A stretch of 64,000 nt of DNA from Dehalococcoidia bacterium. GTDB lineage: Bacteria; Chloroflexota; Dehalococcoidia; Bin125. A program made the translations under genes and the position numbers. Position 1 is the first letter of the stretch, and each line of letters starts with the position of its first letter. The stretch is taken from positions 512,001-576,000 of the forward strand of contig CAXXSR010000002.1 of the NCBI GenBank assembly GCA_963662615.2, given 5' to 3'. Below, one piece after another: positions 34,738 to 45,010 of this stretch. The notes beneath the pieces are model-generated. The model was not told where the DNA came from, made no database searches, and saw only the letters and a program-made list of their open reading frames with translations.

Positions 34738-35679
34738 CTATTGAAAGAGCGCCCCGACCGATTGGCCGCTGTGGATGCGCTGGATCGCCTCACCCAGCAG
34801 TGGGGCGACGCTGACCACGCCGATCTTGCCGCTGTTGACGTAGCGCCGGGCCGGCAGCGTGTCGGTGACAATGACCTGCTTCAGCGGGCTCTCTTCAATG
34901 CGCTCAACGGCGCGGCCGGAGAGAACTCCGTGGGTCGCCGCGGCGTAGATATCATGGGCGCCCTGCTCCTTCAGCAGCGTTGCCACCTCCACCAGCGTGC
35001 CGGCCGTGTCCACTTCGTCGTCAATGATGAGCGCGTCGTGGCCTGCCACTTCACCGATCAGATGAAGGGTCTGGACCTGGTCATCGTTCGACACCCGCCG
35101 CTTTTCGGAAAGGGCCAGCGGCACATTGAGCCGCTCCGCCAGATTGCGCGCTCGCTTGGCGCTGCCCAAGTCGGGCGCCACCACAACGCCGCGGAACTCC
35201 TGATCGCGGAAGTGCTCCGCCAGCAGATTGAGGGCGGTCAGTTCATCGGTGGGCACATTGAAGAAGCCCTGGATCTGGCCCGCGTGCAAGTCGATCGTCA
35301 GGACCCGGTCGGCGCCGGCGGTCTCAATGAGATTGGCCATCAGCCGCGCCGTAATGGGGACGCGGGGCTGGTCTTTCTTGTCGGAGCGGCCGTAGGGGAA
35401 ATAGGGCACCACGGCGGTGATGCGGCCCGCACTGGCGCGTCGGGCCGCGTCGATCATGATGAGCAGCTCCATGACGTTGTCGTTCACCGGCATCGCCCCC
35501 GGCTGCACCAGGAAGACGTCGCGCTCGCGCACGTTCTCGCAGATGCGGACGAAGATGTTCTGGTTGGAGAACGCGAAGACCTCGGCCTCGCCGAGCGATT
35601 GGCCCAGAGCGTCGCAGATATCCGCCGCCAGCTCTTGGTTGGCGTTGCCGGAGAGGATGACGGGTCTGTGGATAGTCAG
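34738..35679 (-). CDS. prs: Ribose-phosphate pyrophosphokinase (start probably CTG)
   Basis: [39 protein letters not shown]; AGGAGG 6 nt before CTG. Confidence 0.93.
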
Positions 35680-35903
35680 GGAGAGCCTCCTCAGCAGTTC
35701 CGAGGCGGGGCCCCAGAGGGTCCAGGCCGAGTATCGGGTCCACCTCACCCGCCCGGCAAGTCCGGGGGGGCCACGCCGGCAGGGAGGACCGCTGGCGCCG
35801 GGCGGCCTGCGCTCGCCGCCGGCCCCACCCCTGCCTGCGCCGCGGGCGAGAGTAACCGGCATGACAGAAGGGAGCCGCAGCCCTGGGGCAGCGATTGACG
35901 GGC

Positions 35904-36386
35904 GGTAGTGTCCTAATTTGCCTCGGGCCAGATAGCGTCGTGGAATCCGGTTACGTCAACGGTGAAAATTATTCCGCCGCCGACTCCTCCGTGAGTTCGA
36001 GAATCCTCTCGATTCGCTCCATCAGCTGGAGGTCCGGCTCGTCTGCTTTGCCCTGTGACTTCAGCATCTCGATGAGCGCGGCCACGTAGTCTGCCTGGAG
36101 ATTCTCACGCGATTTCGTACCACGCCCCAACATCTGCGCCCCCGATCATGCGACCCGATGATCGGACGTGGAGTCCGTTGCACCGGTGCCCTTGGCTCTC
36201 CGCTGCGAGGCATCGCCGCGCGCGCGGAGTCTAGTTCACTGCCCACCCCCGCGAGCCTCTTGGATGATTGCCGCCTGGGCCGCCTTCCGCGGCGAGTCCA
36301 CCGGCCATGTGCCATCGCGTTGACAGAGTGCCTTTCGCGGGCGCCCCGTTCTGTCGTCGGGAGAACCCTCAAACTAGGACACTACC
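35904..36386. mobile_element. 483-bp non-autonomous IS-derived element (MITE/transporter-IS-like, IS1-family-type ends)
   Basis: Left end GGTAGTGTCCTAATTTG (35904-35920), right end CAAACTAGGACACTACC (36370-36386), 16/17 identical inverted; 9-bp direct repeat TTGACGGGC at 35895-35903 and 36387-36395. Confidence 0.88.
35969..36133 (-). CDS. 54-aa passenger protein within the element (not in the ORF track)
   Basis: MLGRGTKSRENLQADYVAALIEMLKSQGKADEPDLQLMERIERILELTEESAAE; two amphipathic helices; GGGGG upstream of ATG. Confidence 0.6.
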   Translation of the reverse strand: MLGRGTKSRENLQADYVAALIEMLKSQGKADEPDLQLMERIERILELTEESAAE

Positions 36387-36415
36387 TTGACGGGCCACCC
36401 CCCATTGCCTATGAT
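36387..36415 (+). promoter_or_regulatory. Putative rpoBC promoter
   Basis: TTGACG-17 nt-TATGAT about 330 nt upstream of rpoB. Confidence 0.7.
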
Positions 36416-36747
36416 GACGCTGGCTGCGCATGCCCAAACGTCTCATTCCTTGGCAACTTCGATAGTGGTTCTCGACCGGCACGGCGGAGAGCGTTGCTCT
36501 GCGTTCAGGGATGCGGTGACCTCTCGATTACCTTCGGGCGAACGCCGGCTCGGCGCGGGCCGGCCGCGAGGCTCCGCCGACCGAGCGGATCGGAGACCGC
36601 TGTGCGTGCGCGCCATTGTGGCGGCGAGCCGTCGCCGAATCCGCGCCGGCGGAAGTCCGCCGCGTGGGCGCTGGACCGAGCCCGTCCTTCCCTGGAGGGA
36701 CCACCGCGATCCTGGGCGATCCGAGCCGTGAGGAGTGCACACTGCCT

Positions 36748-45010
<8,263 letters not shown>

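Follow-up and report, generated by a model that had tools for sequence, protein, structure and literature searches.

A transposase-less IS1-related element at the predicted rpoB promoter of a Dehalococcoidia bacterium and a likely promoter-targeting preference of its family

Introduction

In the genome of a Dehalococcoidia bacterium, a 483-bp segment with inverted ends lies between the divergent genes prs and rpoB and abuts the predicted rpoB promoter, which raises the question of what this segment is, where it came from and whether its landing at a -35 box is a matter of chance. The window, that is, the whole stretch of 64,000 nucleotides analysed, contains the prs ORF (ribose-phosphate pyrophosphokinase; 34738–35862, minus strand, true start probably near 35680) and, on the plus strand, rpoB (36748–40530; start codon inferred from the alignment with relatives) and then rpoC, the last two named from sequence features. 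The predicted sigma70-type rpoB promoter, TTGACG-17-TATGAT, occupies 36387–36415 on the plus strand; the prs promoter, predicted by eye as TTGCCG-18-GATACT (35730–35759, minus strand), is about 140 nt to the left of the insert and is untouched.

Results and Discussion

The Insertion between prs and rpoB

The miniature element spans 35904–36386 and is bounded by a left inverted repeat (35904–35920, plus strand) and a right inverted repeat facing rpoB (36370–36386, minus strand), each of 17 nt and with one mismatch between them. Exact copies of a 9-bp target-site duplication, TTGACGGGC, flank it at 35895–35903 and 36387–36395, and the right copy includes the -35 hexamer of the rpoB promoter (36387–36392). 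All of this agrees exactly with the initial annotation, as do two of its further claims: neither the ORF list nor profile searches gave a transposase ORF inside the miniature, and the core rpoB promoter, with its TTGACG inside the duplicated target, is intact and is the sole sigma70-like site in 35600–36850 (one found vs 0.1 ± 0.4 in shuffles).

The same annotation had proposed looking for an empty site in relatives and had named conserved ancestral DNA as the finding that would speak against an insertion. Among 19 relatives' loci, prs adjoins rpoB in 13, and all 13 are empty, none carrying the ends; the intergenic region measures 390–725 nt in these relatives vs 1,140 nt here (648 nt minus the insert), and the end motif is absent from 64 genomes of the family. 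It follows that the segment is an insertion and not ancestral DNA, the same ends being present elsewhere in the genome as well. The promoter has a counterpart in 12 of the 13 relatives, which retain a TTGA-type -35, a TA...T -10 and a downstream ATGCCC motif (36430–36435, plus strand, in the window). This ATGCCC stands just 3' of the rpoB -10, before a leader of about 300–490 nt, in 12/13 relatives (L002–L016), and could be a leader element.

Meanwhile, contigs from all four conspecific runs examined (from four studies; 24 runs are listed) span both miniature junctions, and the partner element described below is also present in 4/4. No joint skipping the miniature was found in four runs and none skipping the partner in four, where run contigs lose rare variants and a rare empty allele could thus escape. 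Two runs showed loose ends at the termini of the partner; these may stem from other organisms and were left out, as was the one RNA run, which contains 0.06 of the words. In one conspecific run, two changes turn the rpoB -10 into TACAAT with the consensus positions retained.

Anatomy of the Miniature

The interior of the miniature is not empty, a point that the initial annotation did not raise, as it holds a conserved 54-aa ORF (35969–36133, minus strand; five other clusters at 73–80% identity) and a broken 3' remnant of a 100-aa cargo gene (36236–36358, minus strand; about 38 codons, with indels). The 54-aa ORF has no match in Pfam, NCBIfam, PHROG or PADLOC and was absent from 64 family genomes with the 54-aa query, yet a 5' piece of it is present in G016, where this piece and the DNA preceding it are fused in frame to an apparent hsdM fragment (L023:2240–2529, G016:C239); this fusion to a type I methyltransferase piece is joined at a short shared motif, as could arise by recombination or misassembly. 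Within the ORF, at window position 36042, all four conspecific runs examined differ from the window base, which is therefore a minority allele or an error. Structured RNA was sought inside the miniature, and the four Rfam matches were all far below the gathering score.

The Full-Length Partner and a Third End

The initial annotation had also suggested searching the genome for other copies and a full-length partner. The end 17-mers have exact matches at five genome sites, any other site having at least four mismatches, and two of the five enclose a transposase gene and are flanked by a separate 9-bp duplication, so that the ends of the miniature are not a chance occurrence. The partner element, of 2,599 bp, is located at G000:C2:438089–440687 (L021:4090–6688), 107 kb from the miniature, whose asymmetric ends it shares exactly; it has a 9-bp duplication and encodes an intact DDE transposase of 273 aa with D66, D137 and E201. 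It also carries a Fic-domain gene (best PADLOC match SoFic, E 7e-41) and a 100-aa hypothetical gene (L021:6344–6646). One and the same base distinguishes the two ends in the partner and in the miniature, which identifies the left end of the miniature as IRL, the partner end upstream of the transposase, and the right end as IRR, the end downstream of it. Between the partner and a TTGACC -35 there are 16 nt, made up of the duplication and 7 further nt; this -35 precedes a CIRCE-like repeat and hrcA-grpE, so that the partner stands just upstream of the hrcA-grpE promoter.

A third family end is present at C1:1649228 (L022, G000:C1:1649228–1652025), with a further copy of the 100-aa gene next to it. 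This third end is cut off by two adjacent IS3-like copies, the first of which is partial; no promoter was found on its sole surviving flank. The duplications are 9 bp in both complete host copies vs 8 bp in 22/22 class relatives and in 51/55 other complete elements.

Origin of the Miniature

The cargo remnant starts 11 nt inside IRR, marking an internal deletion, and matches the 100-aa gene of the partner in 81 of 117 aligned columns with several indels. The position of the remnant together with its divergence makes the miniature an internal-deletion product of a sibling element and not of the partner; judged from its sequence, it is a transposase-less internal-deletion derivative of a sibling IS1-related element, likely mobilised in trans by the partner transposase. 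No excess of A:T to C:G changes was evident in the remnant against the partner (2/22 changes).

A possible but less likely alternative is that the window copy was inserted at full length and lost its transposase by deletion in place, never having moved as a miniature, a history compatible with the targeting result given below. The miniature is a single copy in the genome, 401 class genomes yielded no second full copy, and its presence in all the conspecific runs examined means that it is not very recent, all of which fits such a history; its ends and duplications, however, are perfect where the remnant has several indels, which fits decay before the last jump, and members of the family that lack a transposase but have duplications of their own are frequent, making up 30 of 55 complete IS1-like elements (11 of the 30 in the register described below).

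MITEs are multicopy elements without coding capacity, and mobile insertion cassettes likewise carry IS ends without a transposase. The miniature resembles both in having IS ends without a transposase, a flanking duplication and a cognate transposase elsewhere in the genome. A MITE in the strict sense does not describe it, since there is one copy with a conserved small ORF, and it is nearer to a cassette: intact ends, a duplication, no transposase of its own and a cognate transposase in the genome place it among non-autonomous IS derivatives or insertion cassettes. Taken alone, the miniature is an ordinary kind of non-autonomous IS derivative.

The Transposase and Its Family

The 273-aa transposase matches PF03400 with 25.6 bits over a cut-off of 24.1, and 120/120 aligned homologues match this family as well; the NCBIfam model NF033558 scores 56.9, under its cut-off of 100. 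In a profile comparison with E. coli InsB the probability is 96.8 and the alignment spans D66, D137 and E201, and the helix-turn-helix (HTH) aligns weakly with that of InsA, over InsA residues 52–89 only, with no zinc finger. At E ≤ 1e-20, at least 7,415 clusters of IS1-like transposase homologues were found among 8,000 candidates scored. The structural model (pLDDT 89.7) combines an HTH and an RNase H core with a beta-hairpin insert, near residues 154–190, that is absent from InsB and in which K161, Y172, P174 and G188 are invariant; the 63 residues between D137 and E201 are modelled as one helix and a beta hairpin. In a fold search, the top match was the ISCth4 transposase, presumably an IS256 family member (Z 14.4, rmsd 3.9, 227 aligned residues, 15% identity), followed by retroviral integrases with Z 11–12; sequence searches found no IS1 transposase among solved structures.

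The initial annotation had named IS1 as the family, with IS256 as an alternative. The first part stands, on PF03400, the InsB alignment and the ends; the second does not, as no Mutator-type Pfam is among the 11 families matched by 120 members. The long alpha-helical insert and C/D(2)H signature of p-MULT transposases are likewise not present, and no conserved His follows D137. By sequence, then, the transposase is IS1-related and not Mutator-type, with deep shared ancestry possible.

The ends of the IS1 family follow the consensus GGnnnTG, for which the IS1A ends were checked directly. An IS1-type DDE domain, GGnnnTG ends and an 8–9-bp duplication place the family described here within IS1. 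Its likeness to the classic IS1 of E. coli consists of the InsB-aligned DDE core, the weakly InsA-like HTH, the ends and the duplication. It is not part of the classic group, since it has a single 273-aa ORF starting at the HTH, without an N-terminal zinc finger or an insA/insB -1 frameshift; unlike classic IS1, it also has some 40 additional residues separating the second D from the E, a protein extended at the C-terminus, cargo genes and a fixed promoter register. The ISMhu11 group of the IS1 family has an HTH without a zinc finger, a C-terminal extension and passenger genes, and the architecture found here fits this group when compared by description only.

The 100-aa cargo gene occurs in 16 of 55 complete IS1-like elements, across phyla, and profile searches found no named family for its protein. 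As a required targeting factor it was rejected: 11/16 elements with the gene and 17/39 without it are in register, so it is not needed in cis.

A Promoter Register across the Family

What the initial annotation overlooked is that the landing at the -35 box probably reflects a family-wide targeting preference. The gap is defined here as the number of nucleotides from the element end to the first base of a -35 box within one mismatch of TTGACA. The discovery set comprised IS1-like elements delimited from 401 class genomes and a scan of a genome collection; of the 27 whose ends matched well, a -35 at gap 15/16 was present in 8 and a -10 at 38/39 in 2 others. The register test was then fixed in advance of fetching the validation data, which came from exact-end scans of metagenomes (at least 132 stretches) and viral contigs (71) and yielded 221 unique outward flanks. 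Among the matches listed, a -35 stands at gap 15 in 28/221 independent flanks, where about 1 would be expected for any one offset, and at gap 15/16 in 36/221, whereas 1000 single-base shuffles averaged 1.7 and never exceeded 8; on the inward strand of the flanks listed there is a small peak of 6 at gap 16, attributed in part to neighbouring family ends.

The validation flanks and two further end types were pooled into 380 flanks from the matches listed, flanks under 70 nt and near-duplicates being dropped. Among these listed matches, gap 15 was found in 40/380 and gap 16 in 9/380 with a background of 1.3, gaps 12–14 had 1–2 each and those beyond 17 had 0–4, and gaps 5 and 10, with 7 and 6, were only suggestive; by set, gap 15/16 was found in 32/147, 5/77, 12/147 and, for the smallest set, 0/9. 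The -10 likewise peaks at gaps 38/39, with 25 and 17 of the pooled matches listed, as a 17-bp spacer predicts; the second end type gave no clear -10 peak. In this second end type, GGTAGTGGGTCA (L310–L449), an outward TTGACC stands 7 nt from the tip when the next base is A and could form hybrid promoters, as classic IS1 does.

Complete elements behave in the same way: among the matches listed, 28/55 are in register vs 2.7 for slid offsets, with 18/21 from metagenomes and 6/16 and 4/18 from viral contigs. An in-register promoter is thus lacking in about half of the complete elements, and viral contigs give a weak signal. Delimitation in 40 regions from the host class gave 22 elements, six of which also belong to the discovery set; 9 of the 22 have a -35 at gap 15 and 4 more a -10 alone, one of these being doubtful as it lies in a tandem array. 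Orientation is free, with the promoter at IRL in 11 cases, at IRR in 6 and at neither in 8. In the same viral collection, the IS1-like family has 17/233 at gaps 15/16 vs 1/199 at gaps 15–17 and no peak for classic IS1. Among distant relatives (26–27% identity), 0/2 delimited elements are in register, a small sample. No tRNA genes were found as targets in 79 in-register flanks. In a crude test of downstream ORF direction, -35 sites gave 12 sense, 9 antisense and 28 too short, and -10-only sites gave 8 to 2.

Proposed Mechanism of Targeting

We consider it probable that the miniature is an internal-deletion derivative that likely moved in trans and that its family targets sites 15–16 bp upstream of -35 boxes, likely via RNA polymerase. 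The element would be excised as a circle and reinserted, as for IS1, with the transposition complex positioned by promoter-bound RNA polymerase. Capture would take place at the upstream edge of the bound holoenzyme, and the duplicated target would lie at about -50 to -43 if the spacer is 17 bp, a zone that would normally seat the tail of the alpha subunit. The candidate targeting part is the conserved beta-hairpin insert (residues ~154–190) that classic IS1 lacks. Such a site may be a safe haven, in which the core promoter survives and the target is restored, so that elements could stack. A target regenerated by insertion fits the further family end found directly after the duplication in 10/380 flanks among the matches listed. 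In the tandem family stacks (L047/L755, L130, L150, L249 and L158), one duplication stands between neighbouring ends, which is consistent with repeated use of one promoter target.

It is unlikely, by comparison, that the same element and targeting operate without RNA polymerase, the transposase reading TTGACA directly via a DNA-binding part of its own. Such a reading would account for a -35 peak far above the -10 peak, for the perfect TTGACA in 20 of the 40 gap-15 sites and for a strict -10 in only 13 of 49 in-register -35 boxes (all among the matches listed), and the transposase does have an N-terminal HTH and an extra conserved hairpin. Against it is the excess of -10 boxes that keep this register without a recognisable -35: among the matches listed, flanks whose -35 has three or more mismatches show a -10 at 38/39 in 19/270, vs 6.6 in shuffles, a count reached in 0/1000 shuffles and exceeding the slid maximum of 12. 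This 38/39 window was narrowed after the first validation, where a 37–40 window had given 15/147 (3/1000 shuffles). The -35-less in-register flanks are enriched for the extended -10 type (6/19 vs 23/308 elsewhere, p = 0.003), and the transposase profile shows no likeness to host sigma region 4 (probability 0.2). Since the -10 excess occurs at promoters without a -35, it indirectly favours guidance by the holoenzyme over sequence readout.

The Window Copy and Its Effect on rpoBC

The window copy is itself off-register, with a gap of 0 to the -35, a gap found in 1/380 flanks and not above background; neither of its flanks has a promoter at the modal register. In the pooled flanks, paired promoters have a tail at gaps 3–14 and none at 0–2. 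The probability that a random genome site has promoter-like sequence within 0–17 nt of either flank is 0.0008, and this, together with the position of both complete host copies at promoters, makes it likely that the window copy landed by loose targeting. It would have inserted off-register on the -35 itself, the duplication preserving the hexamer, and on the sequence features of the locus it is probably near neutral for rpoBC.

That the insertion was instead kept for changed rpoBC or prs expression, an effect that the initial annotation had thought possible, for example through a displaced regulatory site or insulated divergent promoters, has quite a low probability. A GACAGA-like motif (35863–35868, plus strand; a loose motif picked after viewing the alignment) precedes the rpoB -35 by 22–64 nt in 11 of the 12 relatives that have the promoter, and its distance to the -35 here was 32 nt before the insertion and is now 524 nt; this displacement, the intact 54-aa ORF and the occurrence of the miniature in 4/4 runs from four studies speak for such a benefit. 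Neither predicted core promoter is disrupted, however; the upstream DNA that was replaced is rich in GC and does not resemble an UP element, a terminator-like hairpin inside the miniature is no more than chance would give (1 vs 0.6 ± 0.9 in shuffles), intergenic length among relatives itself ranges from 390 to 725 nt, and the partner is equally widespread among the runs, so that drift suffices. Survivorship alone, that is, near-random insertion with persistence where genes and core promoters are spared, is highly improbable, for although only surviving insertions are visible and both complete host copies are in all runs examined, selection would permit any gap and would not be expected to give a peak one base wide at gap 15 beside the low counts at 12–14 and beyond 17, and classic IS1 has no such peak.

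Significance

Promoter-register insertion by an IS1-related transposase is apparently an undescribed property of the family. No report of it by IS1-like elements was found in the article listings and abstracts searched, and the available parts of PMC9208149 and PMC9330008 do not mention it. On a broader and more tentative reading, not far from evenly balanced, a cross-phylum IS1-related clade of at least 7,415 transposase clusters may have independently evolved a tether to sigma70 RNA polymerase via the hairpin insert, inserting in the 15–16-bp register of Mutator-type elements, also at extended -10 promoters without a -35, and stacking cargo upstream of rpoBC and hrcA-grpE. If true, the clade would be a promoter-guided system that delivers cargo genes to sites upstream of housekeeping operons. 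That a second transposase family, found in many phyla, uses this register suggests that initiation complexes offer a general safe-haven target at their upstream edge, and the ends of the family could mark promoters in uncultured bacteria. The tether question is testable, given a 273-aa enzyme, a non-targeting close relative in IS1, a discrete candidate module and cultured hosts such as Acidiphilium.

Comparison with Known Promoter-Targeting Systems

According to the available text of PMC3942029, TnGBS, ISLre2 (p-MULT 3) and some ISKra4 (p-MULT 4) elements insert 15–17 bp upstream of sigmaA promoters; this insertion is there termed atypical, contact with an RNA polymerase subunit is proposed by analogy with Ty3, and an N1–N2 motif with a conserved Asp is linked to promoter targeting. 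A distance of 15–16 bp with 8-bp repeats is confirmed in the accessible part of PMC4701971. The likeness to these systems consists of the 15–17-bp register and 8–9-bp duplications, the register being that of the IS1-like family and of the partner but not of the window copy. As far as the source text available goes, ISKra4 members with near-perfect ends insert both ways, as the IS1-like family does with its promoters at either IRL or IRR. The enzymes differ, in that TnGBS, ISLre2 and ISKra4 have Mutator-type transposases with a long alpha-helical insert and C/D(2)H, whereas the family described here has a 273-aa IS1-type enzyme with a beta-hairpin insert. The Ty3 retrotransposon targets Pol III start sites (as cited in the available text of PMC3942029) and likewise inserts at a constant position ahead of a transcription initiation complex; it is a eukaryotic retroelement with a demonstrated host tether, whereas the tether of the IS1-like family is inferred. 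On present evidence, the IS1-like family is no member of the TnGBS, ISLre2 and ISKra4 group yet appears to work as they do.
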